A DNA stretch of 32,970 nt from Eubacteriales bacterium (GCA_045129715.1 JBGVKA010000070.1:1-32970), one strand, 5' to 3'. Positions 1 through 32,970 are shown, counted from the first letter of the stretch. Translations and numbers: made by a program. Notes: generated from the sequence alone by a model not told the origin.

Positions 1-160
1 CACTCCCGTGTCGTGAGCTGTTTGCTATTCGTCGGTCGGACACGACGAATGACGCAATATACCGCGAGCGGTATGCGCAAATCAGATTATTTAGGAACAA
101 TCCAATCCCTTTGCCAACTCGCGTGCGTGGGACTTCGCTTCGAAAAACGTTTATGTGCGC
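1..160 (+). other. Unidentified structured sequence, probably the 3' part of an inserted element or ncRNA (left end outside the window)
   Basis: Nested stems: 27-34/43-50 (perfect 8 bp), 59-64/69-74, 18-25/77-85 (1-nt bulge) and 4-17/118-132 (G-U rich on the + strand). Homology to the 28250 peptide gene stops abruptly at about 161. Confidence 0.4.
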
Positions 161-229
161 TCACCCGGAACCGAGACTCCTTGGTACGAGGAGAATGACG
201 GAAGCTGGGAGATCAGCGCAAAGGCGTAA
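161..229 (+). pseudogene. 3' half of a small peptide gene paralogous to 28250..28384 (SPGTETPWYEENDGSWEISAKA*), leader half missing or interrupted
   Basis: 16/22 aa identical to the C-terminus of the 28250 peptide, with synonymous changes (gga/ggt, gag/gaa, act/aca, atc/ata, agc/agt). The upstream frame does not encode the leader and has a TAG at 92-94. Confidence 0.7.
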
Positions 230-325
230 GGCTTTGCGCGGTGAGATCCATTTCTGTGAAATGGAATAGATCCAAACAGGTTTGGATGAAATCGCTATGC
301 GATGAAATCCCGCTTTGCAGGATTT
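216..325 (+). repeat. Five-hairpin array, copy A (paralog of 28371..28477)
   Basis: Stems at 216-239, 247-265, 270-287, 291-303 and about 305-325, joined by TGAGATC/TAGATC/TGAAATC linkers. Confidence 0.8.
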
Positions 326-335
326 TATGAAAACG

Positions 336-372
336 AAGGGCTTAGCCAAAGAGAATCGGCTAAGCCCTTTTT
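336..372 (+). terminator. Rho-independent terminator, possibly bidirectional
   Basis: AAGGGCTTAGCC (336-347) / GGCTAAGCCCTT (358-369) followed by a T-run. Confidence 0.85.
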
Positions 373-664: not shown

Positions 665-763
665 TTACCCGAAAAAGCGCATAAACAACATCGCCATAAC
701 AGTAAACATCGAAACAAGTGTAGCTAACATAGCAACAATAACGTGAACATCTGCTTTTTTCAT
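665..763 (-). CDS. Small single-TM peptide (32 aa, MKKADVHVIVAMLATLVSMFTVMAMLFMRFFG), not in the ORF track
   Basis: GAAAGGCGG RBS 7 nt upstream of the ATG. Its stop overlaps the RBS of the 61-aa gene, and a promoter lies directly upstream. Confidence 0.6.
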   Translation of the reverse strand: MKKADVHVIVAMLATLVSMFTVMAMLFMRFFG

Positions 764-994: not shown

Positions 995-1068
995 TGGAGG
1001 TTCCACCCAGATTTGAACTGGGGATAGAGGTGTTGCAGACCTTTGCCTTACCACTTGGCTATGGAACC
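995..1068 (-). tRNA. tRNA-Cys (GCA)
   Basis: Reverse complement GGTTCCATAGCCAAGTGGTAAGGCAAAGGTCTGCAACACCTCTATCCCCAGTTCAAATCTGGGTGGAACCTCCA: 7-bp acceptor stem, D-loop GG, CT-GCA-AC anticodon loop, TTCAAAT T-loop, U discriminator and encoded CCA. Confidence 0.97.
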
Positions 1069-15976: not shown

Positions 15977-16602
15977 TGGCGAATATATTCGATTTGTTTA
16001 AGAAGATAGAGTCGTCCTCCTCCTCCGCGCTCCCCGTGACGCATATCGTCGTAGGACTCGGAAACGTAGGCAAGGAATATGAGAACACCCGTCACAACGC
16101 AGGCTTTATAGCTATTGACGCGCTTGCTGAAAAATGCGGGGTAAGGATCGACCGTGTGAAGTTTCACGCGCTTGTCAGTGAGGCTACCGTCTCGGGAAAA
16201 AGAGTCTTACTTATGAAGCCCACGACGTATATGAACAACTCCGGCGTTGCTATAGGCGAGGCGGCAGCTTTTTATAAGATACCGCCCGAGAACGTTATAG
16301 TTCTTCACGATGAGATAAGCTTTGACGTCGGCGTTATCAGAATAAGAAGAAAGGGCTCTGCGGGAGGTCATAACGGACTTAAGAGCATCATAGCGCATCT
16401 TTCGTCCGATGCGTTCCCGAGGATCAAAATAGGAGTCGGAAAAAAGCCCTCTCCCGATTACGATCTGGTTGATTTCGTGCTTGGAAGATTTTCCGAGGGG
16501 GATCTTAAGGCTCTTAAGGAAAAGAACTCCGAGATCATTTCCGCTACCGAGCTTATGGTGGACGGTAAGATCGAGGAAGCAATGAATAAATTTTCAAAAT
16601 AA
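15976..16602 (+). CDS. pth: Peptidyl-tRNA hydrolase
   Basis: VGLGN, TRHNAGF, KPTTYMNNSG and GSAGGHNGLKS. TAATG overlap with the upstream gene. Confidence 0.97.
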   Translation: MANIFDLFKKIESSSSSALPVTHIVVGLGNVGKEYENTRHNAGFIAIDALAEKCGVRIDRVKFHALVSEATVSGKRVLLMKPTTYMNNSGVAIGEAAAFYKIPPENVIVLHDEISFDVGVIRIRRKGSAGGHNGLKSIIAHLSSDAFPRIKIGVGKKPSPDYDLVDFVLGRFSEGDLKALKEKNSEIISATELMVDGKIEEAMNKFSK

Positions 16603-20180: not shown

Positions 20181-21506
20181 ATGGCAAACAAAAAGAATTT
20201 TAAAAAAGGAACGGCATCTGCCGTTAAAACCAAAAAGAAGCCCTTGACAGAGGAGGAGCGCGCAAAAAGAACGCGCCGCACGGTCATTATCGTGCTCAGT
20301 GCAATACTTGCCGCCGCGATCGTTTTCGGCATAGTGCTCGGAGTTGTGACGCTCGTCAGAAGTGCCTCGTACGTTATGACGCTTGACAGAGTCGGCATCG
20401 ACAAGGGCGTTGCATCCTTCCTTATAAGTATTTATAAGCACGACTATATTGAAACGCTTCTCAACAACGGGATAGATGCCTCCGATTCGAATGAATTCTG
20501 GCTTAAAAAACGTTACACGGGTACCGAGGGAGACCTCTTTAACTACGAGGTTACCGAGTATCTCAAGGGCATAGTTGCGGCAAACGTTTTGTTTGACGAG
20601 TACGCAACGCTCACCGACGAGGATATTTACAAAATCGATTTTGCCGTTCAGGAGGTGCTTAACTTCCAGGCGGGAGGCAGTAAAAAGACCTTCAACGAGC
20701 TCACAAGCTCCATGGGCTTCGATTTTAAGGATTTTAAGCGCGGAACAGAGATGCTTTATAAGCTCAGAGTCGTTTACAATACCGTATTCGGTGAGTCGGG
20801 ATCGAAAATGCAGACGAGCTTTGCCGATTACTGCGATACCTATTACAATGCGAATTATATAAGAGCAAAGATACTCATAATAAGAACTCAGGATACCTAT
20901 AAGTTTGACGAAAACGGCGAGATGATAAAGGGCGAGGACGGAAAATACGAGATCCGTACTCTCACGGAGGAGGAAAAGCTTGAGAGAGCGGATTATATCG
21001 CAAGACTCGACAGCTGTGTTGCTCAGCTTAAAAACAATCCCGATAATACCATAGCATTTAACGACTTCAACAACCTTCTTGACGAGGTGGCGGAAAAGTA
21101 TAAGGAGAACGTGACGTCTGCGGTCAAGAACGGATATTACTTGGCTAAGGGCTCCGATTATACAACGAAGCTTTCGCTTGACGGTATTATCAACGAGGCA
21201 TTTAATCTTGAGGTTGGCGAGATATACACCTGTGAGACGGGTGTTACCGTTGCTGAGGACAACGATAAATCTACCGGATTTTCCTATAAGTGCTACGTTT
21301 ACAAGATGGAGAAGGAGGCTCGCGCGTATAAAAATTCTTCCCTTGAGCATTTCTTCGTGGATTTCAATGCGTTGGCATCCGTTTCGCTTTACGGCGAAAT
21401 CGTTGACGAATATTCTAAGAATGTAGAAATCAAGGATAAATGGGATGCAATAAACCCCGTTGCAATTCCGAGAAACTACAATTATAGAGTTAAGAGCTTT
21501 GTTTAA
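20181..21506 (+). CDS. Membrane-anchored extracytoplasmic protein, probable degenerate PrsA/SurA-like foldase
   Basis: Basic N-terminus plus one TM helix, helical body and YIRAKILI resembling parvulin VRAxHILI. Position after mfd matches clostridial prsA. Confidence 0.5.
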   Translation: MANKKNFKKGTASAVKTKKKPLTEEERAKRTRRTVIIVLSAILAAAIVFGIVLGVVTLVRSASYVMTLDRVGIDKGVASFLISIYKHDYIETLLNNGIDASDSNEFWLKKRYTGTEGDLFNYEVTEYLKGIVAANVLFDEYATLTDEDIYKIDFAVQEVLNFQAGGSKKTFNELTSSMGFDFKDFKRGTEMLYKLRVVYNTVFGESGSKMQTSFADYCDTYYNANYIRAKILIIRTQDTYKFDENGEMIKGEDGKYEIRTLTEEEKLERADYIARLDSCVAQLKNNPDNTIAFNDFNNLLDEVAEKYKENVTSAVKNGYYLAKGSDYTTKLSLDGIINEAFNLEVGEIYTCETGVTVAEDNDKSTGFSYKCYVYKMEKEARAYKNSSLEHFFVDFNALASVSLYGEIVDEYSKNVEIKDKWDAINPVAIPRNYNYRVKSFV

Positions 21507-21684: not shown

Positions 21685-22503
21685 TCAGATGTCATTATTT
21701 GATTTAAGGGTGGTGTATTCCTTTGGCGAATATCCCGTAAGAGCCTTGAATACCCTGTAAAAATTACGGTCACTGCCGAAGCCGCATTCAAGCGCAATGC
21801 TCAGCATATTGAAATTCTTTTCGGCCATAAGCTTCTTTGCGTATTCGACTCGAAGGGAATTGATGAGCATAGAAAAGCTCGTTCCGGGCAGGTCCTCGAT
21901 AACGTGTGAAATATAGCTTGGACTGTACCCGAGCTCAGCACCGACCGAGGAGCGTGTTAGGTTTTCACGGAAATGCTCGGCTACGTACATTATTATCTCG
22001 GTCAAGGCGTTGTTCTTGATCTCTCTTTTTATCTGCGGCACCTTCTCGGTGTATTCGTTGAGTATGGCGTAGGCGAGAGCCTTTATTTTCATCATAAGGC
22101 GGTGGTTTGCTTCGAGGTCAACGACCTTATCCCCCATGTCCAAAAGATTTTCGCGAACGAAGGATGCGAGTCCAAACGAAGCGGTAAATCCGCAGCACTC
22201 ACCATTTATCAGCGCCATATCGTTCGAAATAAAGTCGGATACAAACGTGTTCGAGGGGATGAGTATCCACCTTTTAGTGCCTTCCTTCGTTTTGAAGCTA
22301 TGCGCTCGGAAGGGGCTTATAACGATAACGTCACCCTCGTGCAGTATTTCGGTCTTTGAATCGACCGTCAGCTCGACCTCGCCCTCAAGGATAAACTGTA
22401 TCTCGGTAAATTGGTGTATTCTCGTCGGAAAATCGTAAATGCCGTCCGCGATGAAGCATTTGACGGAGTTATTAAAGCCGAAGTTTTGTATTGAAACGTA
22501 CAT
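21685..22503 (-). CDS. AraC family transcriptional regulator (cupin + double HTH), no. 1
   Basis: RIHQFTEI cupin, LGYSPSYISH, LRVEYAKKLM and IALECGFGSDRNFYRVFKALTGYSPKEY. Start moved to 22503 because of a GGAGG RBS. Confidence 0.95.
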   Translation of the reverse strand: MYVSIQNFGFNNSVKCFIADGIYDFPTRIHQFTEIQFILEGEVELTVDSKTEILHEGDVIVISPFRAHSFKTKEGTKRWILIPSNTFVSDFISNDMALINGECCGFTASFGLASFVRENLLDMGDKVVDLEANHRLMMKIKALAYAILNEYTEKVPQIKREIKNNALTEIIMYVAEHFRENLTRSSVGAELGYSPSYISHVIEDLPGTSFSMLINSLRVEYAKKLMAEKNFNMLSIALECGFGSDRNFYRVFKALTGYSPKEYTTLKSNNDI

Positions 22504-22539
22504 AAACGTCCTCCGAATAAAAAAGCTTATAGCACTATA

Positions 22540-22593
22540 TGGCACAAATTATACCACATTTGGCACACTTTGTCAATGATTATATGTTAAAAT
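22540..22593. promoter_or_regulatory. Overlapping divergent promoters with candidate AraC direct-repeat sites
   Basis: Minus strand TTGACA(22576-22571)-17-TATAAT(22553-22548). Plus strand TGnTAAAAT (22585-22593) with no good -35. TGGCACA at 22540 and 22561 (21-bp period). Confidence 0.7.
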
Positions 22594-22637
22594 TGAGATA
22601 CTCAAACTAATTTTAATAAATATTTAAGGAGAATTTT

Positions 22638-25600
22638 ATGAAAAGTCGAATTAACGCATTAACTAAGATCACGTTGATCGTGCTTCTCGTTGCTCTTGTC
22701 GTTGCCTCCGTAGCGTTTTCTACGGGCGCGGCTTCCGAGATAGGAGAGAGCGCCTCGGAGGGTAGAACCTTCAAGGATATAACAAAGCTTGACCAAAGGC
22801 TTGAGCTTACAAGACCTCTTGAGGATATCCCACTCACATGGGAGGCAGAGATCAAGGTTGAAGGAACCTCAGACGAGCTTTGCAAGGGTACGCTTTTTGG
22901 TCAGTACGGCGGAAACGGAAAGAACGTTTTCTTCAATTTTGAAATATTCACGGTAAACGGTGTTCCTTCACCTGCTTTGGTATACGTGAATGACTATACG
23001 CCAAAGAGTCAGAACTCGGTCGTGTTCGACAAGAACTCAACTCCTATCAAGGATGCGGACGGAAAAACCAATACCATTGCCGATCACATAGGTGAGTGGG
23101 TACACGTTGCAATCACCACGACCTTGGTCGACGCTTCAACCAATACGTATGATTTTAATTGCTACATAAACGGAAAAAAGGCATACGAAACCGTTCAGAG
23201 AAAGAACGTGATATTCACCGAGTCAAACCTCGAAACAGCACAGAACTCCAACAGATTCGCTCTTGGATCTAATGCTGTTCCCACCGATCCCGTAGAGTTC
23301 CCCGGCTCGATCAGAAAATTAGCCCTTTACGGTAACTCTCTCACCGAAGAGGAGGTGGCTTCGTCTTATAAAAACGGCGTAAACAAAAACGGAACCGATC
23401 TTATCGCATACTACGATATGAGCACGGTTGACGATCTTTGGTACGAGGAGGATCTCTCGGGCAACGGTTATCACCTTGCAAGAGCAGATAAGGTATACAA
23501 CGTCAACAGCGAGGGAAGAGGCGGCTTTGACAAGGCCAACAGACTCACTCTTACGAAAAAGCTCACCGAGACACCTCTTACCGTGGAGGCTGTTATTAAG
23601 ACAACGTCAACGGGATGCACTGTTTTCGGAAATACCACTACTTCCACCGTCGGATGCCTTAATTTTGAGATATACAAATCCCAGCCTGCGCTTTGCTTCC
23701 CCATAGATGCTACGGGAAAGAGAGGCTCGGTGATCTTCTCAACTCCCCTTGAGGGAGTGCAGGGCTTCACTCCCAACGCGAACGAGAAGGACGGTTTTAC
23801 TTATATTGCTATCACCGCTACGCCTACCGGTGTTGAAAACACCTATAATTTTGATTGCTACGTAAACGGTGTTAAGGCTTATGATACGATCACCAATAAG
23901 GTTGCTTATCTCGACGCGGAGCTTATTCAGGCGGCAGGTAATCTTGTTATCGGCGGAAACGGAGGAAGCTCTCAATTCTCAGGAACCATCAGAAGCGTAA
24001 ATCTTTACAACCGCCCGTTGACAGCGGCGGAGATCAGAGCTTCGTATATCTTCGAGAGCACCTTTGACGGTATGATAGCGGGTTATGATATGTCCGATTA
24101 CTCGCATATCAGAAATCCTCAGTTTGAGGCTGATATTTCCGGTAACGGATACCACGCGCAGAAGGCTAATAATACCAACACCGGCAAATGGTTTGACACT
24201 ACCTCGGGCGGTGACAAGGTTGCTGCTTCCGCGGATGCCGCAAAGCCGTATTTCGTTTATAATACGATCGAGCAAATGCCGAGAACCTACGAAATGACCG
24301 TATACGTTAACGGAAACGCCAGTAACGAGGTCTTTTCGAGCACCGTATTCGGCAACTATCCCAATGCGGCTAATTCCTGCATAAACCTTGAGTTCTTCAA
24401 CAAGGGAATCGCGCTCTGTCTTTGGGATTACGACGCAAGTGGAAAGCTTGTGAAGGATACCGTTCAATTCACTTATAAGCCTACGGCTAATCAGTGGCTT
24501 CACCTCGTAGTTACCAACGAAGTCGCCGCGGGCAAGAGCATATATAAGCTTTACATCAACGGCGAGCACGTTGACACCGTAACGAGTAAGCCGAACGTTC
24601 ACGACATAATCGATTCGCAGACCGCAACTCGTTTGTTCTCTCTTGGCGGAAGCGGTGCAAAGAGCTTCAACGGAGGTCTTATAGACTTTGCTCTTTATTC
24701 CGATCCTCTTACCGCTGAGGAGGTAATGGACTCCTTCAGAAACGGTGTTAACAAGTATGATGAGTCTCTTATAGCTTACTACGATCTTAAGACCGTAGCC
24801 GGTGACGACTTCATTCAGGATCTTTCCGGTAACAATCATCACGCATCGAGAAACGATTACACTCTCGCAGAGGGCGGAAGATGGTTCAATATCGACGAGG
24901 AAAGACTTGCGGTATCTAAAAATTACAAAGATGCTCCTCTTACGATTTCGGCAGAGATCTATATCCCCGAAAGCGTAAATAAGGCAAATACCATTTTCGG
25001 TAATTTTTACGCGAGAGACTACATCAACTTTGAGATCACCTCTAATAATAAGGCGGCTCTCGTTATCAACGAGCTCCCCGAAAATCTTATAACCTCGAAC
25101 AGCACTGCGTATATCCACTCTATCGTCTTCAACGAGGAGATCCCTCGCGGAGAATGGACCACCCTTACCGTAGTATACGATAAGTATTGCACCACCGACG
25201 ACAGATACGCTCTTTACGTTGACGGCGTTAAGTCCACCGCAGGATACACCTTCGGCGGTATTCACAACGATAAGAACAGTGCGGGAAACAAGATAGTTTC
25301 TCACACCTTCGAGCTTGATATGGAATGGATCCAGAGAGCTATTCCTTTCACTCTCGGAAGAGACGCAACCAAGTGCTTCCAGGGTAAGATAAAGAATCTC
25401 GCTCTTTACTCCGAGCCTCTTTCGGAAGAGCAGATCGCAAGCATTACGGCAAACGGCGTTGATATGACAAGCCGCGAGCTCTTTGCTTACTACAACCTCG
25501 ATAACCCCGAGAACACCAAGACCTTCGTTAAGGACGAGACCGGCAACGGCTACGACTTTACCTACAGATTCTTCGAGAGCGAGAACGAGGAGACCTACGA

Positions 25601-28214
25601 TTACTCCTTCGCATTCCTCGGAGACACTCAGTTCCTCATCTATAAGGACATTAACGAGGGTACCACTAAGTATACCAAGGCTATTTACGATTGGCTTATC
25701 GAGAACAAAGACGAGAAGAAGCTTCAGTACGTATTTGGTCTCGGTGATATCAGTGACAAGGATATGATAGCCGAATACGAATACGCGGCTTATCTCTACA
25801 GCACTCTCGGTGATGCCGGAATCAAATACGCGGCTATCCCCGGTAACCACGACGGACAGACCGCATACGTCAAGTACGATTCCGTATTCTCTCAGGATGC
25901 ATACCTTACTGACGGTGTCGTCAGCTACAAGGATGGAAGCGTTGCTAACTACTACAAGACCTTCGAGGTTGGCGAGTACAAGTATATGGTAGTAGTTCTT
26001 GAGTTCGGTGCTCCCGATGCGGTTCTTGAGTGGGCAAACAATGCCGTTGCATCGAATCCCGACAGACAGGTTATCGTTCTTACTCACGGTTACATAGGCT
26101 ACGACGGAGGCTTCCTCAGTGAGAAGGAGCTTCACGCACCTAACGCAAACAACGGTCTTAACAGCGGTGAGGAGATCTGGACAAAGTTTGTTTCTCAGCA
26201 CTCCAACATCATAATCTCCGCTTGCGGACATATCGATCCCTATAACATCAAGCAGAGATCTGACGTAGGCGTGAACGGAAATACCGTTCAGCAGTTCCTT
26301 ATCGATCCTCAGGCTCTCGATAAGACCTGGAGCTACGACACCGGTATGGTGGCTATGTTCTACTTCTCGGACGGCGGTAAGGACGTAAGAGTTGAGTACG
26401 TTTCCACGACCAAGACTCAGAGAGCAAAAGAAACCGATCCCAACGCTAAGGACGTTCTCTTCGGCGAGGCTAATCAGTTCAGCTTTACTCTCGATATCCC
26501 CACCGCAGAGAAGGTAGTTACCGCTTACGGTGAGCTCCCCTATATCAATACTAACCTTGATCTTAACGCAGCGGTTCTCTTTAAGAATAACGCAGACGGA
26601 ACCTATTCCTTCGTTGGCGGTTATGCGAGCGTTGACCTTGCGTTTGCGGAGGTTATAAAGGACGCGAGCGGAAGCTTTACCGTTCTTCTTCGCGACAACG
26701 CGAGAATGTCCTCTAAGGTATCCTTCAATAATTTCAAAGGCGATCTTACCCTCGATCTTGGCGGATACGAGCTTAAGGTTGACCAGAGCGGCAATTATCT
26801 CTTCGATATTTACAGAAATAACGCGACCTCGATAAATGCGACCTACACCGTTAAAAACGGTAGCATTACTAAGGCTCACGGAAGAGGTCTCAACTGCATT
26901 AACTACGGCACCTCTATTGCCGCAGACAGCAGCATCTCCTTCACCTACGATAACGTAACTTTCAAGTCGTTGACCTCATCCCTCGTTAACAACGTTATCT
27001 TCTGCAACTGGGAAAACGGTTACTCAAGTGCTATCACCAACAAGATGTACGTTAACGCAGTATTCAACGACTGTACGTTCGATCTTAAGAACTCTATAAA
27101 CGGCGCGCTTATGCTTTCTATGACCAACACCTCAAACGGCGGTAACGTGGTGGTTTACGACGTTACGGTCAACGGCGGTGTTATAGCGGTTAAGGACGGT
27201 GCGGACATTGAAGGTCTTTACACTCAGGACGCACTTGATAAGATCACCTTCGGCAAGACCGAGGACGGAAATTATACCGCTCTCGTAGCTCCTTACGGCT
27301 CGACCGAGCCCACCGTAGTTTATAACGGACTTGAGTTCGTTAAGGTATCCGAGAATGCAGACGAGGTAATTTACAGACTTAGACCCGTCGAGGTTGCAGA
27401 TGTAAATTATGCGCCCAAGATGAGCATAACTCTCGCTACCGAGTTCGTTATGAACGTATACGTTCCCGTAAATTATACACAAAAGTTTACATTTAACGGT
27501 GTAACCTACGATTCCGCAAACTCCTTCGGCGGTAAGGTCACCACTCTTGATGACGGATATAGCTACTACGTTATCTCCGTAGCTCTCGGCTCCTCCGAGG
27601 CTGCAAGCGAGCTCAAGCTCGTAGCTACCGTTAACGCTGAGGACACCGTTGCAACCGCTACCTTCACCTTCTCCATTCCTAAGTACGCAAAGAAGGTCAT
27701 CGCAGGCGGCAGCGAGGTGGAGAAGACTCTTGTCAAGGACGTTCTTGCTTACGTAAGAGCGGCTTACGAGTACTTCACCGAGCACAACGATAAGGCAGAG
27801 ATAGAGAGAGTTGTTGCTCTCGTTAACTCCATTATCGGAGAGGATCACGTAAGCGTTCCCACCTCGAGCGGTGTTACCGCAAAGGATAACGCAGGCATCG
27901 TTACCGACGTAACTCTTAACCTCAGCGCAAATCCCACCGTTCGCTTCTACGTGACCGATACTGCTCTTGAGTTCTATGCGAACGGCAAGAAGCTTAATAC
28001 CGTAGCATCCGCTGACGGCGGCTACGTTGAGCTTGACGTATACGCATATGCACTCGCTGAAACCATCACCTTTGGTGAGGGCGGAAGCTACCACGTCTCC
28101 GATTTCGTAAACGGTGCTAAGGGTACCGATCACGAGGCGGTTGTGAATGCGTTCGTTAAGTACGTTGAGGCGGCAGCCGATTACAGAAATGCTGTAATCG
28201 GAGGTAATAAGTAA
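22638..28214 (+). CDS. Giant secreted protein (1858 aa): signal peptide, 4 LamG/concanavalin-A-like domains, calcineurin-like metallophosphoesterase, about 290-aa unknown module, tandem C-terminal domain
   Basis: Signal peptide ending ..STGA/A. Four repeats with WxHV, YINGx, FxGxI..LALY..PLTxEEI and D.SGNGYH. GDTQ/GLGDISD/GNHD/THGY/GHID phosphoesterase motifs at about 25600-26490. Confidence 0.85.
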   Translation: MKSRINALTKITLIVLLVALVVASVAFSTGAASEIGESASEGRTFKDITKLDQRLELTRPLEDIPLTWEAEIKVEGTSDELCKGTLFGQYGGNGKNVFFNFEIFTVNGVPSPALVYVNDYTPKSQNSVVFDKNSTPIKDADGKTNTIADHIGEWVHVAITTTLVDASTNTYDFNCYINGKKAYETVQRKNVIFTESNLETAQNSNRFALGSNAVPTDPVEFPGSIRKLALYGNSLTEEEVASSYKNGVNKNGTDLIAYYDMSTVDDLWYEEDLSGNGYHLARADKVYNVNSEGRGGFDKANRLTLTKKLTETPLTVEAVIKTTSTGCTVFGNTTTSTVGCLNFEIYKSQPALCFPIDATGKRGSVIFSTPLEGVQGFTPNANEKDGFTYIAITATPTGVENTYNFDCYVNGVKAYDTITNKVAYLDAELIQAAGNLVIGGNGGSSQFSGTIRSVNLYNRPLTAAEIRASYIFESTFDGMIAGYDMSDYSHIRNPQFEADISGNGYHAQKANNTNTGKWFDTTSGGDKVAASADAAKPYFVYNTIEQMPRTYEMTVYVNGNASNEVFSSTVFGNYPNAANSCINLEFFNKGIALCLWDYDASGKLVKDTVQFTYKPTANQWLHLVVTNEVAAGKSIYKLYINGEHVDTVTSKPNVHDIIDSQTATRLFSLGGSGAKSFNGGLIDFALYSDPLTAEEVMDSFRNGVNKYDESLIAYYDLKTVAGDDFIQDLSGNNHHASRNDYTLAEGGRWFNIDEERLAVSKNYKDAPLTISAEIYIPESVNKANTIFGNFYARDYINFEITSNNKAALVINELPENLITSNSTAYIHSIVFNEEIPRGEWTTLTVVYDKYCTTDDRYALYVDGVKSTAGYTFGGIHNDKNSAGNKIVSHTFELDMEWIQRAIPFTLGRDATKCFQGKIKNLALYSEPLSEEQIASITANGVDMTSRELFAYYNLDNPENTKTFVKDETGNGYDFTYRFFESENEETYDYSFAFLGDTQFLIYKDINEGTTKYTKAIYDWLIENKDEKKLQYVFGLGDISDKDMIAEYEYAAYLYSTLGDAGIKYAAIPGNHDGQTAYVKYDSVFSQDAYLTDGVVSYKDGSVANYYKTFEVGEYKYMVVVLEFGAPDAVLEWANNAVASNPDRQVIVLTHGYIGYDGGFLSEKELHAPNANNGLNSGEEIWTKFVSQHSNIIISACGHIDPYNIKQRSDVGVNGNTVQQFLIDPQALDKTWSYDTGMVAMFYFSDGGKDVRVEYVSTTKTQRAKETDPNAKDVLFGEANQFSFTLDIPTAEKVVTAYGELPYINTNLDLNAAVLFKNNADGTYSFVGGYASVDLAFAEVIKDASGSFTVLLRDNARMSSKVSFNNFKGDLTLDLGGYELKVDQSGNYLFDIYRNNATSINATYTVKNGSITKAHGRGLNCINYGTSIAADSSISFTYDNVTFKSLTSSLVNNVIFCNWENGYSSAITNKMYVNAVFNDCTFDLKNSINGALMLSMTNTSNGGNVVVYDVTVNGGVIAVKDGADIEGLYTQDALDKITFGKTEDGNYTALVAPYGSTEPTVVYNGLEFVKVSENADEVIYRLRPVEVADVNYAPKMSITLATEFVMNVYVPVNYTQKFTFNGVTYDSANSFGGKVTTLDDGYSYYVISVALGSSEAASELKLVATVNAEDTVATATFTFSIPKYAKKVIAGGSEVEKTLVKDVLAYVRAAYEYFTEHNDKAEIERVVALVNSIIGEDHVSVPTSSGVTAKDNAGIVTDVTLNLSANPTVRFYVTDTALEFYANGKKLNTVASADGGYVELDVYAYALAETITFGEGGSYHVSDFVNGAKGTDHEAVVNAFVKYVEAAADYRNAVIGGNK

Positions 28215-28241
28215 GAGTGAATAGTGAAGAAGTGAGGTTAG
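28204..28241 (+). repeat. Heptamer-type repeat shared with the tRNA trailer (875-899, minus strand)
   Basis: 28204-28228 matches the reverse complement of 875-899 at 24/25 nt. Confidence 0.7.
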
Positions 28242-28249
28242 AAAAGAAA

Positions 28250-28384
28250 ATGAAGAATTATATTAACCCCGAAATTGAGGTTGTAGAGCTTAAGATAAAC
28301 GATATTCTTACTACATCATCAGGTACCGAAACACCTCCTTACGAGGAGACAGACGGAAGCTGGGAGATAAGTGTAAATCCTTGA
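28250..28384 (+). CDS. 44-aa acidic peptide with a lasso/RiPP-like leader (MKNYINPEIEVVELKINDILTTSSGTETPPYEETDGSWEISVNP), not in the ORF track
   Basis: ATG 35 nt after the giant gene stop, GAGGT RBS-like site, and a paralogous fragment at 161-229 with synonymous changes. Confidence 0.8.
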   Translation: MKNYINPEIEVVELKINDILTTSSGTETPPYEETDGSWEISVNP

Positions 28385-28477
28385 TCGGATTTACACAATG
28401 AAATCCATTTCGGTGAAATGGAATAAATCCACTAAGGTGGATGAAATCGCTATGCGATTAAATCCGACTTTGTCGGA
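28371..28477 (+). repeat. Five-hairpin array, copy B
   Basis: Stems at 28371-28396, 28404-28422, 28427-28442, 28446-28458 and 28463-28477, joined by TGAAATC/TAAATC linkers. Confidence 0.8.
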
Positions 28478-28485
28478 CGAAAAGC

Positions 28486-28523
28486 AAAAGACTTAGCCGG
28501 AAAAATACGGCTAAGTCTTTTTT
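28486..28523 (+). terminator. Rho-independent terminator closing the giant gene/peptide unit
   Basis: AAAAGACTTAGCCG / CGGCTAAGTCTTTT followed by a T-run. Homologous to 336-372. Confidence 0.88.
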
Positions 28524-28600
28524 GCGTGGTTTTAAATTATATAAAAGCGGTCTGTGTGACGGTGGCTTTGATGGGTAGTGTTTGATAAAAACACAGATTT

Positions 28601-28654
28601 TGGCGGTTTTGTGTATGCTTTTGGCAAGACAAAAAACAGTGTAAATGTTATACT
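28601..28654 (+). promoter_or_regulatory. Candidate orphan AraC-type promoter, antisense to AraC no. 2
   Basis: TGGC at 28601 and 28622 (21-bp period) and ATGT-TATACT with the -10 27 bp after the second repeat start, the same geometry as 22540-22593. Confidence 0.45.
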
Positions 28655-28709
28655 AAAATAAACAAACGTATCAAAATGGGAAAATAGGCGCGACCGTCCT
28701 TGGTGTCGA

Positions 28710-29525
28710 TCACTCAAAAAAGCTCGTTTTGGGCTGCTCCTGCGGACCTGCAAAGAACTTTTTTCTGTACTCCGAAGGTGAGAATCCCATAATGCTTCTG
28801 AATTGCCTTAAGAACGTTCGTTCGCTTCCGAATCCGCATTCGTAACCGATCTCGGTCGTGGTTTTGTCACTTGAGGTGATAAGATATCTTGCGCGCTCGA
28901 TCCTGAGGCTTGCAAGAATGGTACAGAAATTGAGTCCGTAAAGCTTTTGTATACAGTGGGAGAGATAATTCGCACTGTATCCGAGTGCACCTGCCACGCT
29001 ATCGAGTGTGATAGGCTCGGTAAAGTGCTCGTTCATATAGGTTATCACCTTAGAAACTACACTCGTTCCGCCCATACTTTTATGTAAAGGCGTCGTGGAA
29101 ACGTAGTCGTTAAGAGCAAGATAGAGAAATCCCTTTACGTTGTAAAGGGAAAGGTCCTCACCGTTAAGTATCTTCTCGCGGAATACCGCGAGAGTTGACT
29201 CGCTCGGCTTGAACACCGCGCGCTCACCGACGTTGCCCTCGTGCTTCTTCATAAAGCTGACCGTCGTTGCAGGGGAGAAGAGGTACATTGCGAGCTTGTT
29301 TACGCCTTTGGAGGACATATTGTGGGTTTGGTAGGGGAAGATGAATGCCGCCTCGCCCGCCCTTATGTATTCCTGCTTGTCGTCAACAGTGATACGCATC
29401 TCGCCCTCAAGCATAAATATGAGCTCTGCGTATTGGTGGATATGGTTCGATACCTTATACACCTTGTTATATATCTGATGCTGAAAGGCGGCTTTTGAGC
29501 CGAAATTGTTTCCCATTATACGCAT
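28710..29525 (-). CDS. AraC family transcriptional regulator, no. 2 (paralog of no. 1)
   Basis: HIHQYAEL cupin, LGYSANYLSH, LRIERARYL and IGYECGFGSERTFLRQFRSIMGFSPSEY. GGAGG RBS. Confidence 0.95.
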   Translation of the reverse strand: MRIMGNNFGSKAAFQHQIYNKVYKVSNHIHQYAELIFMLEGEMRITVDDKQEYIRAGEAAFIFPYQTHNMSSKGVNKLAMYLFSPATTVSFMKKHEGNVGERAVFKPSESTLAVFREKILNGEDLSLYNVKGFLYLALNDYVSTTPLHKSMGGTSVVSKVITYMNEHFTEPITLDSVAGALGYSANYLSHCIQKLYGLNFCTILASLRIERARYLITSSDKTTTEIGYECGFGSERTFLRQFRSIMGFSPSEYRKKFFAGPQEQPKTSFFE

Positions 29526-29551
29526 ATCACGAACCTCCGTTTCTCGATTAC

Positions 29552-29602
29552 ATTATACACCGTTTATCACAATTTGTCAATAATGCCAAACGGCTTTAAA
29601 AT
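29552..29602. promoter_or_regulatory. Divergent promoters sharing an overlapping -35 region
   Basis: Minus strand TTGACA(29580-29575)-17-TATAAT(29557-29552). Plus strand TTGTCA(29574-29579)-17-TAAAAT(29597-29602). Confidence 0.7.
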
Positions 29603-29638
29603 ATACAAAACACACCAAACGTAAAAAGGAGAATAAAA

Positions 29639-32600
29639 ATGAAGAAATCAAGACTTATAGCACTTTCGCTCAGCTTGATAATGCTTATCTCGGCTCTCTT
29701 TGCCTTTACCGTGCCCACAGGTGCGGCAGGTGAAGAAAAGGAGCAATCGGGATTCTTTGAAAGGGCTGACAAGGATGCAAGCACCTATGCCTATTCAATC
29801 GCGGTTATCGGTGACACGCAGTCACTTTCCGATAGCGATTACGATAATAGGAATAACGATAATTATGTAAAGAGAATGGATACTCTCTATTCTTGGGTTC
29901 AGAACAATATCGAAGCAAAGAAGATCGGTCTTGTAATGGGACTTGGCGATATCGTTGAGAATTGGGAGCATCCTCTCGATTGGCCCGAGTATAAAGATAC
30001 CGACAAGGGTAATCAGAGCATTTGGGAGTGGGAGAATGCGACTCGCATTTTCAATACCTATCTTGACGGCGAAAACGGAGTAAACGTTCCTTACACTCTC
30101 GTTCGCGGTAACCACGATAGCGCGAATGCGTATAACGCCTTTGTCACAAGCGAAAATATGTCGGCATACAGAGAACAGTTCGCCTCCGATAACGCAGGCT
30201 TCTACGTTGATTCAAATGGCGTTATCAAGTATGATAACTCCTATATGAAGCTTACTCTCGGAACAACCAAGTGGCTCGTTATGACTCTCGATTACGGAAT
30301 TACCGAGCGTGAGCTTGACTGGGCGGGTGACGTGATTGCCGAGAACCCCGATTACAGAGTTATTCTCTCTATGCATAGCTATCTCTATCACGATAAGACG
30401 ATAGATGGAGAGGGCGATACGCAAAGCACAGCATTCCCCAATCCTAACTGGGATTATACTATGGATATGCGAGGCAACAACAAGACCGATGAAAACCCCG
30501 AGGGTCCTGTTTACAATCCCGACGGTATCTGGGAAAGACTTGTTTCGAGACATTCCAATATCGAGATCGTGCTTTCGGGACATATTCCCAACAGCGCTAC
30601 TCAGATGTCACAGCTTGTCGGTGATAACGGAAATACCGTGACTCAGATTCTTGTCGACCCTCAGTCTATGGATCTCCCCGCTAACAACACCAGTGGATGC
30701 GGAATGGTAGCTATGCTCTATTTCAACGAGGACGGCACGCTCCAAGACTCTCAGTGGGATGAAAAGACTATTGATCTTGAATGGTATTCGACTATTAAGC
30801 AGAAGTACTTTAAGGAAGCTAACCAGTTCACCATCGACGTTAATTTGTATGACGGCGGTATTAAGACCGAAAATTACGGTACTATCCCCGCAAAATATGC
30901 TGACACGGAAAAATATCCTTTTGTAACCTTTGGTTACGATAGAGATATCGACGAATACTTCTTCCTTGGCGCATACAGCAGCTGGTCGGATTCGAGCACG
31001 GGTGCATATCCTGCTCTTTCGACAATTTCGGGTGCTGCTAAAAAGGTTCCCGCTTACGTTCTTCTTCGCCGTGATTACACATCTGAAATAAGTAAGTCTT
31101 ATGCGATGGGTAAGCTCACGCTTATGGAGGTCAACCTCGACCTTAACGGATTTACCGTAACCACGGGCAACAACGCCTTCTTCAGCACCAATCTCGGAAC
31201 CGCTAATGCAAAAACGACGCTTAACGTATTCGGAAAAGAGGGATCGAAGATTCTTAACGGAAGTTCCTACCGATCCTTTATAGTTCTCGGAGCTACCAGC
31301 TCGGGCTCGGGCGCAAGCTTTACTTATAATTTTAGCGGCATTACCTTTGGATTTGCCGAAGGAACGACCACAACGAAGCTTGTAGCAGAAACCTTTGATA
31401 TGGCTTCGAGCAATAATTCTCCTATAACTATTTCACAAAGCCTCAACTTTGAAAATTGCACGTTTGATCTTAAGACGAACAAGCCGAGCAATTCCGTGGT
31501 CCTCTTCAAGCTTAATGAATCCGTGGGAGCAGGATTTAACGTTTGCTCGACGGGCGTTAAGGTAGACGGCGGAAAGATTATCGCAAACGATATGACCTCT
31601 GTCGAAATCTGCAAGAAGAATGCAACCGACACGATAACCTTCAACGAGGGCAAGTCGGGTGAATATACCACCTTTGAGCTTTCCTCGGGTGCCGCGGCTC
31701 CCACCGAGGCTCTCAAGAACTCGCTTGGCGAGGATCTTGAATACGTAAGCCGCGGAAACGGAGTTTACGGCTTGGAGAAGGCTACCGAAAAGCGCGGAGT
31801 TATCGACGTTTGGCTCATCGGCGGACAGTCCAATGCCGCAGGATACGGCAGTGACGGACTCACCGATGCTAAATACGATTCAAGATATACGAACGGCTTT
31901 GACAATATCCTTTACTACGGTGCAGGTGACAATAACGCGAAGGATTCCTTCGTTCCCCTGACCGTAGGTCTCGGAAACAAGGCAACCTCCGTTGGTGCCG
32001 AGGTCGGAATTGCCAAGATGCTCGGTGACACGGACACTATGAACGCGGTCATCAAGCTCGGACGCGGTGCATCCTACCTCTATCCCAACACCACGGCAAG
32101 TGCATCCCAGAATTACGGAACGTGGACGTCTCCCACCTATATAAAGACTCACGGTATCGATACCGACGGAACTCTTATCGGTGCGCTTTATAACGATTTT
32201 ATCGAGACCGTTGCCGATGCGATAGCAATCCTTAAGGCACAGGGCTACACACCCGTCATCCGCGGTATGTGGTGGATGCAGGGCGAGGCGGAGAGCTCCG
32301 ATGCGACCACCGCTGCGGCTTACCCCGAGCTTCTTGAGTGTCTTATCAACGACCTCAGAAGAGATATCGAGGCGGCGTGCGGTGTTGAAAGCTCGGATAT
32401 GCCCTTCGTTGCAGGCAATATTCTCAGAAATCCCGCAAAGGATGCTGACGGAAACTTCGTTTATTCCCAGCCCGCATTCCTTGCAGACATCAATGCGGCT
32501 CAGGCGAGCGTTGCCAAAAAGCTTAATAACGTTTACACCGTGGCTACCGCTCATCTTCCTCAGATAGATAACTGGCACTTCACGGCAGACGCTCAGCAGT

Positions 32601-32970
32601 ATCTCGGCGAGCAGTTCGTCAAGAACGTGGTATATTCGTCGGGTAAATACAGCGTATCGATTGACGGTATCGCGGCAGAGGGAACCGGCTTCGGAGCCTA
32701 CGCTCCCGGTGAAACGGTTACCGTAACCGTTTCGGGCAGAGACGGTTGGCTTGTTAAAAAGGCTTATTACACCATTTCGGGTGCGACTCCTATTGAGATC
32801 GCCGTAGCCTCCGGTAACGTTACCTATACCTTCACGATGCCCACGTCTGACGTTACGATCTCGGTAGATACTGAGGATACCGGTGCGGTAAGCACGAAAT
32901 ACGGAAGCATTCCCGCAGTGTTTACCGATGCACAAAAATATCCCTTCGTTCTCTTCAAGAACGGTGAATT
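29639..32970 (+). CDS. Giant secreted protein (partial, at least 1110 aa, runs off the window): signal peptide, metallophosphoesterase, about 290-aa module, SASA/CE6-type SGNH acetylesterase, small beta repeat, start of another module
   Basis: AAGGAG RBS and MKKSRLIALSLSLIMLISALFAFTVPTGA signal. GDTQ/GLGDIVE/GNHD/MHSY/SGHIP motifs, then GGQSNA (about 31820), WWMQGEAE and DNWH (32567-32578). No in-frame stop found by manual translation. Confidence 0.88.
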   Translation, partial: MKKSRLIALSLSLIMLISALFAFTVPTGAAGEEKEQSGFFERADKDASTYAYSIAVIGDTQSLSDSDYDNRNNDNYVKRMDTLYSWVQNNIEAKKIGLVMGLGDIVENWEHPLDWPEYKDTDKGNQSIWEWENATRIFNTYLDGENGVNVPYTLVRGNHDSANAYNAFVTSENMSAYREQFASDNAGFYVDSNGVIKYDNSYMKLTLGTTKWLVMTLDYGITERELDWAGDVIAENPDYRVILSMHSYLYHDKTIDGEGDTQSTAFPNPNWDYTMDMRGNNKTDENPEGPVYNPDGIWERLVSRHSNIEIVLSGHIPNSATQMSQLVGDNGNTVTQILVDPQSMDLPANNTSGCGMVAMLYFNEDGTLQDSQWDEKTIDLEWYSTIKQKYFKEANQFTIDVNLYDGGIKTENYGTIPAKYADTEKYPFVTFGYDRDIDEYFFLGAYSSWSDSSTGAYPALSTISGAAKKVPAYVLLRRDYTSEISKSYAMGKLTLMEVNLDLNGFTVTTGNNAFFSTNLGTANAKTTLNVFGKEGSKILNGSSYRSFIVLGATSSGSGASFTYNFSGITFGFAEGTTTTKLVAETFDMASSNNSPITISQSLNFENCTFDLKTNKPSNSVVLFKLNESVGAGFNVCSTGVKVDGGKIIANDMTSVEICKKNATDTITFNEGKSGEYTTFELSSGAAAPTEALKNSLGEDLEYVSRGNGVYGLEKATEKRGVIDVWLIGGQSNAAGYGSDGLTDAKYDSRYTNGFDNILYYGAGDNNAKDSFVPLTVGLGNKATSVGAEVGIAKMLGDTDTMNAVIKLGRGASYLYPNTTASASQNYGTWTSPTYIKTHGIDTDGTLIGALYNDFIETVADAIAILKAQGYTPVIRGMWWMQGEAESSDATTAAAYPELLECLINDLRRDIEAACGVESSDMPFVAGNILRNPAKDADGNFVYSQPAFLADINAAQASVAKKLNNVYTVATAHLPQIDNWHFTADAQQYLGEQFVKNVVYSSGKYSVSIDGIAAEGTGFGAYAPGETVTVTVSGRDGWLVKKAYYTISGATPIEIAVASGNVTYTFTMPTSDVTISVDTEDTGAVSTKYGSIPAVFTDAQKYPFVLFKNGE

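Follow-up and report, generated by a model that had tools for sequence, protein, structure and literature searches.

The constant core of this locus, as judged from sequence comparison, is a C-terminal domain (CTD) at the end of a giant exported protein together with the gene for a small peptide that trails it, a core narrower than the module proposed in a first-pass annotation of the same DNA. This pairing has no described counterpart. The conserved C-terminal half of the peptide is predicted, by structural modelling, to dock into a groove of the CTD, and we would put at roughly even the chances that the two genes form a module in which an exported, CTD-bearing enzyme and a small peptide adaptor act together for assembly or retention at the cell surface. 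The window, that is, the whole stretch of 32,970 nucleotides analysed, is one complete contig (C70).

1..145, +, 3' part of spacer D, a repeated element of ~190 nt (bases 1-141 equal the end of contig C75, minus strand)
146..229, +, start-less partial peptide gene, 3' half (..VRSPGTETPWYEENDGSWEISAKA*), by homology to the full copy
216..327, +, left hairpin array, Gut-1-like, first hairpin over the stop codon (fold z = -5.9)
338..372, +, left intrinsic terminator (GGGCTTAGCC..GGCTAAGCCC, then a T run), by folding
21685..22545, -, AraC-family regulator 1 (cupin and HTH_18), divergent from giant 1 (ORF, Pfam)
22638..28214, +, giant secreted enzyme 1, 1858 aa (ORF call, Pfam, hydrophobicity)
25569..27314, +, stretch common to both giants, Metallophos plus ~390 aa matching no Pfam family (protein alignment, Pfam)
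27393..28211, +, CTD of giant 1, aa ~1586-1858, predicted peptide-binding module (alignment, HMM match, AF2 model, complex prediction)
28250..28384 including stop, +, 44-aa peptide gene (MKNYINPEIEVVELKINDILTTSSGTETPPYEETDGSWEISVNP), an ORF with its own Shine-Dalgarno motif
28371..28477, +, five hairpins with AAATC linkers, the first including the peptide stop codon, by folding
28486..28527, +, intrinsic terminator of the complete unit, by folding
28710..29525, -, AraC-family regulator 2 (cupin and HTH_18), divergent from giant 2 (ORF, Pfam)
29639..32968, +, giant secreted enzyme 2, first 1110 aa (ORF call, Pfam)

All the parts that had been listed previously, namely two AraC/giant units, a 44-aa ORF, five hairpins and a terminator, are indeed present, with two coordinates needing correction. 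Giant 1 runs from a signal peptide through four Laminin_G_3 stretches, a Metallophos domain and an unnamed module to the CTD, and the peptide gene starts 35 nt beyond its stop codon; giant 2, whose ORF is open at the 3' end because the contig ends there, has a signal peptide, Metallophos, the shared module, a SASA esterase and Flg_new_2. Each has a single N-terminal hydrophobic signal segment. The Metallophos domain (PF00149) scores 35.0 and 32.7 bits in the two proteins against a gathering cut-off of 21.5, and residues 978-1559 of giant 1 align with residues 39-689 of giant 2 at 29% identity over 682 columns (E 3e-49), in keeping with the earlier claim of a common phosphoesterase subtype and a common module. 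Although giant 2 is cut short, it is collinear over all 1110 aa with orthologues at L032 (60% identity, 2253 aa) and L029 (48%, 2512 aa), both of which terminate in the CTD followed by a peptide gene. The giants were suggested to be a family of mix-and-match enzymes, and this is supported: the CTD stands behind Metallophos, SASA, GDPD, GH95, GH29, GH78, F5/8-C and other modules. It is the names of these Pfam families that point to a possible removal of phosphate and acetyl groups from glycans.

A third unit had been postulated to the left of the window and is now supported, since window bases 1-141 are identical to the final 141 nt of contig C75 (minus strand) in an overlap comparison of contigs, and on C75 there is a giant ORF with this CTD, along with a full peptide gene. 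The same search of the genome's contigs found none overlapping the right end. Spacer D sits between the full peptide gene of C75 and the start-less partial copy; it recurs in C129, with diverged versions in L008 and L017. As for the homologous tail described at the left end, the homology was confirmed, at 146-372, but the peptide gene there is only a 3' half that has no start codon, and its differences from the full copy lie mostly at synonymous sites.

The pairing of peptide and CTD is seen most clearly across genomes. A tblastn search with the peptide in its own genome (2.04 Mb, 82.8% complete) gave 33 matches on 28 contigs, 25 of them full length; where at least 300 nt of contig lay upstream of a full-length copy (22 copies), a same-strand large ORF preceded the peptide by 13-157 nt in 21. 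Other metagenome-assembled genomes (MAGs), whose records are labelled Clostridia, have the same layout, with a large ORF directly upstream at 30 of 31 loci with upstream DNA, and 28 of those 30 ORFs are at least 849 aa long. Overall the gap between giant and peptide is 12-160 nt, and in most copies 12-42 nt. The peptide gene is tied to the CTD, as the earlier annotation had supposed: 46 of 54 upstream ORFs end in a common stretch of ~300 aa that includes this domain, and four more carry it internally. The converse is looser, since of 30 genes whose product ends in the CTD about 12 have no peptide gene behind them, so the pairing is not strictly one to one. Groove residues are kept in CTDs lacking a peptide (114/120 identities) much as in those with one (173/180), and co-evolution between the peptide and its adjacent CTD is weak (Mantel r 0.14-0.28).

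The CTD comprises ~270 aa, is present on at least 55 ORFs of this ~2-Mb genome, and has no Pfam match; indeed, neither it nor the peptide matches a Pfam or NCBIfam family, which agrees with the initial impression that no described system was involved. AF2 models it confidently in the absence of the peptide (pLDDT 87.4, pTM 0.85) as two beta-sandwiches, a three-helix bundle and a long terminal helix, a fold for which structure comparison gave no informative relative. The C-terminal domain of the type 9 secretion system (T9SS) bears some likeness, in that it too is a beta-sandwich kept at the C-terminus of numerous large secreted enzymes, but the resemblance is weak (Z 5.5-5.7 over 67 aligned residues, values within the aligner's noise), the CTD described here is three times longer than the ~80 aa of its T9SS namesake, which a type IX translocon recognises, its hosts are labelled Clostridia, and we know of no peptide partner for the T9SS domain.

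The peptide itself is acidic, with ~44 aa, an N-terminal half of the form MKKYxNPEIEVVE...DILTTS, a junction of S-[PS]-G in this subfamily, and a C-terminal half (residues ~23-42) of the form SxGTETPxYEExDGxWE; the final three to five codons differ by tail type. When the peptide and the CTD were modelled together, on alignments of our own making, the median ipSAE was 0.79 against 0.00 for the best control, on a mark calibrated such that 58 of 80 solved complexes reach it as against 2 of 110 mismatched pairs; these are model outputs, and the runs have at least 56% of contacts in common with a partner pLDDT of at least 53. The predicted contacts join 16-22 with 27-32, placing the peptide as an added edge strand on the first beta-sandwich of the CTD, with its Tyr and Trp in a groove of invariant CTD Tyr, Ser, Thr and Asn, while the N-terminal half lies outside the interface. 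The interface comprises 41 of 280 residues and includes 12 of the 24 invariant CTD columns (hypergeometric P = 1.6e-5). This pose presumably resembles the strand complementation of Ig-like domains, as in chaperone-usher donor strands or SpyTag/SpyCatcher, where a peptide also extends a beta-sandwich by one edge strand; the differences are that there is no sequence or clear fold relation, that the CTD folds without the peptide, and that no isopeptide chemistry is indicated.

Because the C-terminal half is predicted to lie on the CTD and the N-terminal half is common to thousands of peptides, we read the peptide as an adaptor. A large, Sec-exported, multi-domain and presumably glycan-active enzyme would bear the non-catalytic CTD of ~270 aa; the separately translated gene of the ~44-aa peptide would follow on the same transcript; the C-terminal half of the peptide would hold the CTD by adding a beta-strand to its first beta-sandwich; and the N-terminal half would perform a function common to the whole superfamily, our best guess being that through it a shared partner exports the peptide or docks with it, so that many enzymes might be assembled at the cell surface or kept there. 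A retention role would fit the finding that familiar means of attachment did not appear where we looked: sortase (PF04203) in none of six peptide-bearing genomes, SLH or Dockerin_1 (PF00404) nowhere in the genome under study (at 82.8% completeness, its absences are weak evidence), dockerin and cohesin in none of the giants scanned (16 for dockerin), and a further hydrophobic segment in none of the complete giants, save for a weak stretch (score 1.62) in L029. The peptide has no signal sequence, whereas the CTD would be exported by Sec, and six genomes showed no C39-peptidase exporter, which sits awkwardly with an adaptor.

A bolder form of the adaptor idea, in which 50 or more giants of an uncultured gut Clostridia lineage each grip a peptide tail with the CTD in a tag-and-catcher fashion while the head of the peptide engages a common partner for export or anchoring, strikes us as rather doubtful; were it true, it would amount to a sortase-free, dockerin-free route to the Gram-positive surface for enzymes. 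Docking, if real, would provide a first function for two orphan families, the CTD (at least 55 ORFs) and the peptide superfamily (4,333 clusters in public data), and would point to an unrecognised handling of very large secreted glycan-active enzymes in gut anaerobes that have neither sortase nor dockerins, and a natural pair of 20-residue tag and binding domain would be of interest to protein engineers. A close comparison is with the cohesin-dockerin assembly of the cellulosome, where dozens of unlike secreted glycan-active enzymes from one organism also bear a common non-catalytic module, with docking between proteins as the role proposed here; the differences are that no dockerin was found in this genome, that each enzyme has the gene of its 44-aa partner next to it in place of a scaffoldin, and that the CTD fold is one of two beta-sandwiches plus helices.

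The absent signal sequence, and our finding no dedicated exporter, would be explained if the peptide, produced by coupled translation straight after the C-terminus of the enzyme, stayed inside the cell as a pilot or holdase, holding the CTD briefly ahead of or in the course of its Sec export and governing export competence or the timing of release. Substrate-specific secretion chaperones bind C-terminal regions, and such a pilot would resemble them; the short gaps (mostly 12-42 nt) and separate Shine-Dalgarno motifs fit production in the same place at the same time, and the predicted binding to the CTD is equally in its favour. We nevertheless think it unlikely, as the CTD is already folded in the predicted complex and SecYEG does not let folded domains through, 12 of 30 CTD-ending genes lack a peptide of their own, and an N-terminal half conserved over 4,333 clusters would be left with no role.

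That conservation at depth could instead suggest a leader-plus-core peptide, akin to a bacteriocin, pheromone or RiPP precursor, with the N-terminal half as leader up to the invariant S-x-G, the acidic tail as product, and proximity to the enzymes arising from common regulation. A profile of the peptide finds 4,333 peptide clusters at E <= 0.001, with the N-terminal half in common and differing tails, there are many paralogues per genome, and the spacing L(-12), D(-8), I(-7), [PS](-2), G(-1) recalls, as we take it, that of double-glycine leaders. The likeness extends to the short length and variable acidic tail, but where double-glycine leaders end in GG, GA or GS the junction of this subfamily reads [PS]-G (SGG in many remote members), six genomes yielded no C39 peptidase exporter (PF03412), neither maturase nor transporter genes lie beside the copies read, the neighbours being secreted proteins, and in this subfamily the two halves are equally conserved, the tail being the exact part predicted to fit the neighbour's conserved groove. 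We accordingly regard a leader-plus-core peptide as quite unlikely.

The adaptor reading also agrees with where the remote relatives lie: among ten sampled, six follow a large secreted ORF at 11-30 nt and three come just before one, and in one case the ORF that goes with the remote peptide contains a distant homologue of the CTD (hhalign 95.7%, E 1e-8, 247 columns). This arrangement, in which remote peptides go with remote CTDs, counts against a selfish or recombining 3' cassette of peptide ORF and mosaic tail, spreading among gene ends with the link to giants as a target preference. Such a cassette would account for several oddities, including the mosaic make-up of the tails from repeated elements, half copies lacking a start behind full ones, spacer ends that resemble the gene's S-P-G-T codons, a spacer in tandem at one locus, the many copies at contig ends, and public short contigs that join unrelated genes to a half copy. 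However, purifying selection on the protein is strong, with synonymous sites saturated, no REP-associated transposase was found, and mobility of the tails is compatible with a function for the peptide, making the cassette very improbable as an explanation.

The peptide gene is, on the evidence of its codons, translated, because third-position variation dominates and a Shine-Dalgarno-like motif stands ahead of 57 of 58 copies. Summed entropies by codon position are 17.2/9.7/41.7 for 24 copies of this genome and 19.0/12.3/47.6 for 30 from elsewhere, and at residues 21-29, where the amino acid is invariant or almost so, third positions still show 0.2-1.9 bits of variation, with at least 0.9 at eight of the nine. 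That the ORF goes untranslated and its conserved sequence acts as RNA with the hairpins is barely credible, for although the first hairpin contains the stop codon and the final codons depend on the type of tail, position 3 varies 2.4-4.3 times as much as positions 1 and 2, residues 21-29 are kept as amino acids, the Shine-Dalgarno motif is all but universal, and Rfam matches the hairpin part only.

The hairpins themselves had been proposed as a structure dedicated to the cassette, a suggestion that is not supported. The array of the complete unit folds at -67.4 kcal/mol (z = -10.1, with none of 200 shuffles as stable), and both window arrays have the layout of the Gut-1 RNA motif (RF01706), hairpins of variable sequence with UGAAAU linkers in a three-hairpin consensus. 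Their scores of 28.8 bits (28420-28488, E 0.0014) and 27.2 bits (270-323) fall below the 50-bit gathering score, whereas three other arrays of the genome exceed it (69.3, 56.2 and 51.1 bits). Of 19 Gut-1 model matches in the 2.04 Mb, 13 lie away from peptide genes, and the seven with an upstream gene read follow housekeeping genes, judged from translations to be a sugar kinase, PFL activase, MBL hydrolase, ABC ATPase, GuaA, acyl-CoA synthetase and UxaC. In animal-gut MAGs such arrays occur, in both orientations, behind the stop codons of many genes and ahead of their terminators. The terminator at the left end closes many other copies as well. We conclude that the array belongs to or resembles the catalogued Gut-1 motif, and its presence in the 3' untranslated regions of many genes argues for a generic REP-like 3' element and not a free-standing small RNA. 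With REP/BIME elements it shares clustered short palindromes in 3' untranslated regions, genome-wide repetition and occasional inverted pairs; it differs in that the linker is conserved and not the stem, and in that no Y1 (RAYT) transposase (PF01797) was found in this 82.8% complete genome. Gut-1 is listed as a likely non-coding RNA known only from human-gut sequence (Weinberg et al. 2010, PMC2864571). This orphan motif is now placed in identifiable genomes and contexts.

The AraC regulators were likewise counted as part of the module, yet a divergent, adjacent AraC gene occurs in only 7 of 22 related loci, making these regulators frequent but optional neighbours. The two in the window are paralogous (32% identity over 263 aa, E 3e-47), score above the cut-offs for HTH_18 (64.0 and 69.5 bits) and Cupin_2 (39.2 and 37.8 bits), and are preceded by a sigma-70-like promoter matching at 12 of 12 positions (22576-22548, AraC 1) and a promoter-like site, also 12 of 12, at 29580-29552 (AraC 2).

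The real, and apparently undescribed, feature of this stretch is the pairing of a protein domain with a small peptide, to which the hairpins and the AraC genes are accessories; the observation made in the first-pass annotation is confirmed, and its interpretation is partly right. The domain, which we call the CTD, has no Pfam match and makes up the last ~270 residues of a family of giant ORFs, and the 44-aa peptide is encoded just behind it (its N-terminal half is called the head here, and residues ~23-42 the tail).

Principal features of the window
22638-28214, plus strand: giant 1, 1858 aa, with the CTD at aa ~1586-1858
28250-28384, plus strand: peptide gene, 44 aa
216-327 and 28371-28477: hairpin arrays
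29639-32968, plus strand: giant 2, open at the contig end, 1110 aa read
22548-22576 and 29552-29580, minus strand: perfect 12/12 TTGACA-17-TATAAT promoter-like sites for the two AraC genes, overlapping weaker sites on the plus strand that point towards the giants
468-653 and 665-763, minus strand: two short, highly hydrophobic ORFs of 61 and 32 aa, back to back, just past the terminator of the left tail
998-1068, minus strand: tRNA gene (62.2 bits)
20181-21506, plus strand: ORF of 441 aa, basic at its N-terminus and with a single transmembrane segment; its large outer part is unnamed

The window is one whole contig of a 2.04-Mb genome (277 contigs, 82.8% complete) whose relatives, labelled Eubacteriales, Ruminococcaceae or Clostridia bacterium, come from animal guts, and the stretch is found again in gut metagenomes, bovine and other. 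Every part listed in the first-pass annotation is there. Two AraC genes (both cupin plus HTH_18) are present, 32% identical and each divergent from a giant ORF with one N-terminal signal segment, and the two giants have in common a Metallophos domain and ~390 unnamed residues (29% identity over 682 columns, E 3e-49). Downstream of giant 1 come 35 nt, the peptide gene, five hairpins and a terminator, the hairpin and terminator fold being one that none of 200 shuffles equalled in stability (z = -10.1). A third unit does lie to the left, as had been supposed, since the 3' end of a further contig of the same genome (C75, minus strand) is identical to the window's first 141 nt, and this contig carries a giant ORF with the CTD, a complete peptide gene and the beginning of a spacer that runs on into window 1-145. 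The tail at 146-372 is indeed homologous to that of the complete unit, though what it holds is the 3' half of the peptide gene, without a start codon, and not a complete gene. No overlapping contig was found for the right end. Giant 2 has two orthologues, collinear with it along all 1110 residues (60% and 48% identity), both of which extend more than 1,100 residues further as far as the CTD, with the peptide behind it. At Rfam gathering thresholds the tRNA gene is the sole match in the window; the 441-aa ORF gave a 19-bit match to AgrB, below cut-off and resting on its basic, transmembrane N-terminus, which we judged spurious.

The peptide gene is multi-copy and translated, to judge from how it varies. 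There are 33 tblastn matches (E <= 1e-3) on 28 contigs of its own genome, comprising 25 full-length copies, one divergent relative and seven partial ones (two of these cut by contig ends), and a species collection yields 34 further loci, 25 of them from a single other metagenome-assembled genome, JAZRDI01. Roughly 28 contig breaks fall at the cassettes. Most of the variation falls at third codon positions, the entropy summed by codon position being 17.2/9.7/41.7 for 24 own copies and 19.0/12.3/47.6 for 30 copies from elsewhere; at residues 21-29, where the amino acids are invariant or nearly so, eight of the nine codons show 0.9-1.9 bits of third-position variation. Of 58 copies, 57 have a Shine-Dalgarno-like motif upstream. 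Neither Pfam nor NCBIfam has a match for the peptide, nor NCBIfam for the giants, and the ESM Atlas offers only clusters titled 'hypothetical protein' for peptide and CTD. Peptide strings such as GTETPWYEE, NPEIEVVE, SPGTETP and PEIEVVE are absent from the searchable literature, in which further motif strings (ITTSGG, DVITTS, DIITTS, EDVITT, EDIITT) bring up nothing relevant.

The proposal that the peptide is tied to the domain is borne out across loci: 21 of the 22 full-length own copies with enough upstream DNA sit downstream of a large ORF on the same strand, at a distance of 13-157 nt, and the layout recurs in 30 of 31 loci elsewhere, where 28 of these ORFs have at least 849 aa. The upstream ORFs are also mix-and-match, as had been suggested, in that their catalytic parts differ (Metallophos, SASA, GDPD, GH95, GH29, GH78, F5/8-C, DUF4962 and others), while the last ~270 residues are common to 46 of 54 by BLAST, and a CTD HMM finds the domain internally in four of the remainder. 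That HMM matches 55 ORFs in the genome of the window; at least this number carry the module, many of 1,200-2,700 aa and about 11 with the module internal rather than terminal, so giant secreted enzymes must make up a large share of a ~2-Mb genome. The reverse association, from CTD to peptide, is looser. Among the genome's genes that end in the CTD with at least 200 nt of DNA downstream, our reading of the HMM table gives 18 followed by the peptide and 12 that run straight into a terminator, and conserved residues are kept equally in the latter (114 of 120 identities, against 173 of 180 with the peptide). Fused CTD-peptide forms were also sought, and the seven hits among 7,999 candidates scored, none with a CTD, were ORFs extended upstream or unrelated genes entering a half copy on short contigs.

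How might the two partners meet? An AlphaFold2 model of the CTD is confident (pLDDT 87.4, pTM 0.85) and gives, in order, a beta-sandwich, a three-helix bundle, a second beta-sandwich and a long terminal helix. No fold could be assigned, Foldseek against the PDB returning only matches of TM ~0.2 (IsdB/IsdH, Fc) and a wide VIA-align search a best Z of 6.7 (CBM56, 73 residues). The tail of the peptide is predicted to bind the CTD: the complex scored ipSAE 0.79, 0.80 and 0.74, with all three controls at 0.00, on a mark reached by 58 of 80 solved complexes and 2 of 110 mismatched pairs, a calibration only roughly valid here because our own alignments were used. At least 56% of contacts are common to the runs, partner pLDDT is at least 53, and the contacts come from peptide residues 23-33 and 35-42; the strand pairing of 20 with 27, 18 with 28-30 and 16 with 31-32 would make the peptide an antiparallel edge strand. 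The head is not placed. Of the 24 invariant CTD columns, 12 fall within the 41 interface residues (P = 1.6e-5), a check that is not fully independent since the same alignment fed the model. Mirror-tree correlations between peptide and CTD are weak, both in the own genome (r = 0.20-0.28, with 58-109 of 2000 permutations as high) and in JAZRDI01 (r = 0.14-0.18, 35-66 of 2000). At residue 37 of the peptide (window 28358-28360), 20 of 24 own copies have Ser and 27 of 30 from elsewhere have Ile, with synonymous sites saturated, and no CTD column tracks the change (best score 0.41 against 0.77), a pattern that hints at a shared third partner or short-tract gene conversion.

The pairing seems to be older than the 44-aa subfamily, going by remote homologues. 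A peptide profile matches 11 of 121 sampled genomes of the GTDB family, the matches beyond the window's own genome spanning only positions 1 to about 29, and the head, MKKYxxPxIExxxxxxxDIxTTSxG, recurs in ten of these remote ORFs, which are 36-55 aa long and have unrelated acidic tails; six lie 11-30 nt downstream of large secreted ORFs and three just upstream of one. The C-terminal 300 residues of one such neighbour are a remote CTD homologue (hhalign 95.7%, E 1e-8, 247 columns), and a second matches the first half of the CTD only (63.9%). With the remote ORFs included, the profile finds 4,333 clusters (E <= 0.001) among 1.84 billion representatives. Strong CTD matches among the 121 genomes are confined to the window's own and one of its two sampled congeners, which marks its subfamily as narrow and expanded.

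The gene association and the coding status of the peptide can be taken as shown and the binding as predicted; what follows is inference. We favour the idea that the peptide may be an adaptor, its tail gripped by the enzyme's CTD and its head serving some purpose that the whole superfamily shares. The enzymes' signal peptides look cleavable, they have no further hydrophobic segment, no sortase was found in six genomes searched (the window's own being 82.8% complete), and SLH and dockerin were not detected in that genome, SLH being present on one or two proteins in three of five relatives; together these make a role in surface assembly or retention attractive. The weak point of the adaptor is topology, for the peptide has no signal sequence and a C39-type exporter was found in none of the six genomes, so that export by a C39 peptidase was rejected. 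One rival would keep the peptide inside, as a cytoplasmic pilot, which suits the missing signal sequence.

A second rival, the selfish recombining cassette, draws on the half copies, start-less 3' parts of the gene that are set apart from a full copy ahead of them by a spacer of 130-250 nt; at least three genomes have them.

Half copies of the peptide gene
Window: 146-229
Own genome: contigs C129, C266, C22 and C183
Related locus L008: ~650-735
Related locus L033: 31-108
Related locus L017: 8130-8480

In one spacer type both ends resemble the peptide gene's TCACCCGGAACC (S-P-G-T) codons, and L017 carries this spacer as a tandem duplicate. The pattern points to site-directed recombination or to a small mobile element; for the half copies themselves the candidates are recombination scars, silent cassettes or such an element. 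Against the cassette stand the coding constraint on the full copies and the conservation of the arrangement among remote peptides and CTDs. The remaining rival, export of the peptide as leader plus core, has against it that none of the six genomes yielded a C39-type exporter. The DNA behind the gene also has a second, AT-rich form, which follows peptides ending ..ISAKA (C45, C99, C129, C171, C183, C191, C203, C211) and has strings of CATTATTCATCATTCATTAAAC-like repeats ahead of the same terminator; on C211 it occurs without a peptide gene. In four public proteins (P0147-P0150) from short metagenome contigs, unrelated ORFs (PGM, PFL, an HD-domain protein and an LRR protein) enter a half copy in frame, and these are likely to be assembly chimeras at the repeat or real cassette insertions.

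Neither accessory proved constant. AraC, taken at first as a fixed part of the module, is divergent and adjacent in only 7 of 22 related loci with enough upstream DNA, and the hairpins are not dedicated to the cassette. They match the Gut-1 motif (Rfam RF01706), in which UGAAAU linkers join hairpins whose sequence is free. The two arrays of the window score 28.8 and 27.2 bits, short of the 50-bit cut-off; Gut-1 was listed by Weinberg et al. (2010, PMC2864571) as a likely non-coding RNA, known there from human-gut sequence only. Our array counts rest on its covariance model, as simpler hairpin scanners were too strict or too loose, the loose ones giving 54 arrays where shuffled sequence gave 20. 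At E <= 0.01 the model matches 19 places in the genome, three of them above cut-off, and just six sit behind peptide copies; others follow housekeeping genes, some as inverted pairs. Gut-1 here behaves like a REP-type 3' element, resembling REP elements in its 3' placement and differing in that no Y1 (RAYT) transposase was found in this 82.8% complete genome. Bona fide or near-threshold arrays, of up to 69.3 bits, occur on C269, C197, C29, C97, C100, C55, C260 and C245, between housekeeping stop codons and terminators and sometimes as inverted pairs, and an orphan metagenomic motif is thereby given a genome and a 3'-UTR context. Just downstream of one array pair, at 414-501 of locus L041 (C97 ~16113-16200), lies a purine riboswitch aptamer of 47 bits (cut-off 37).
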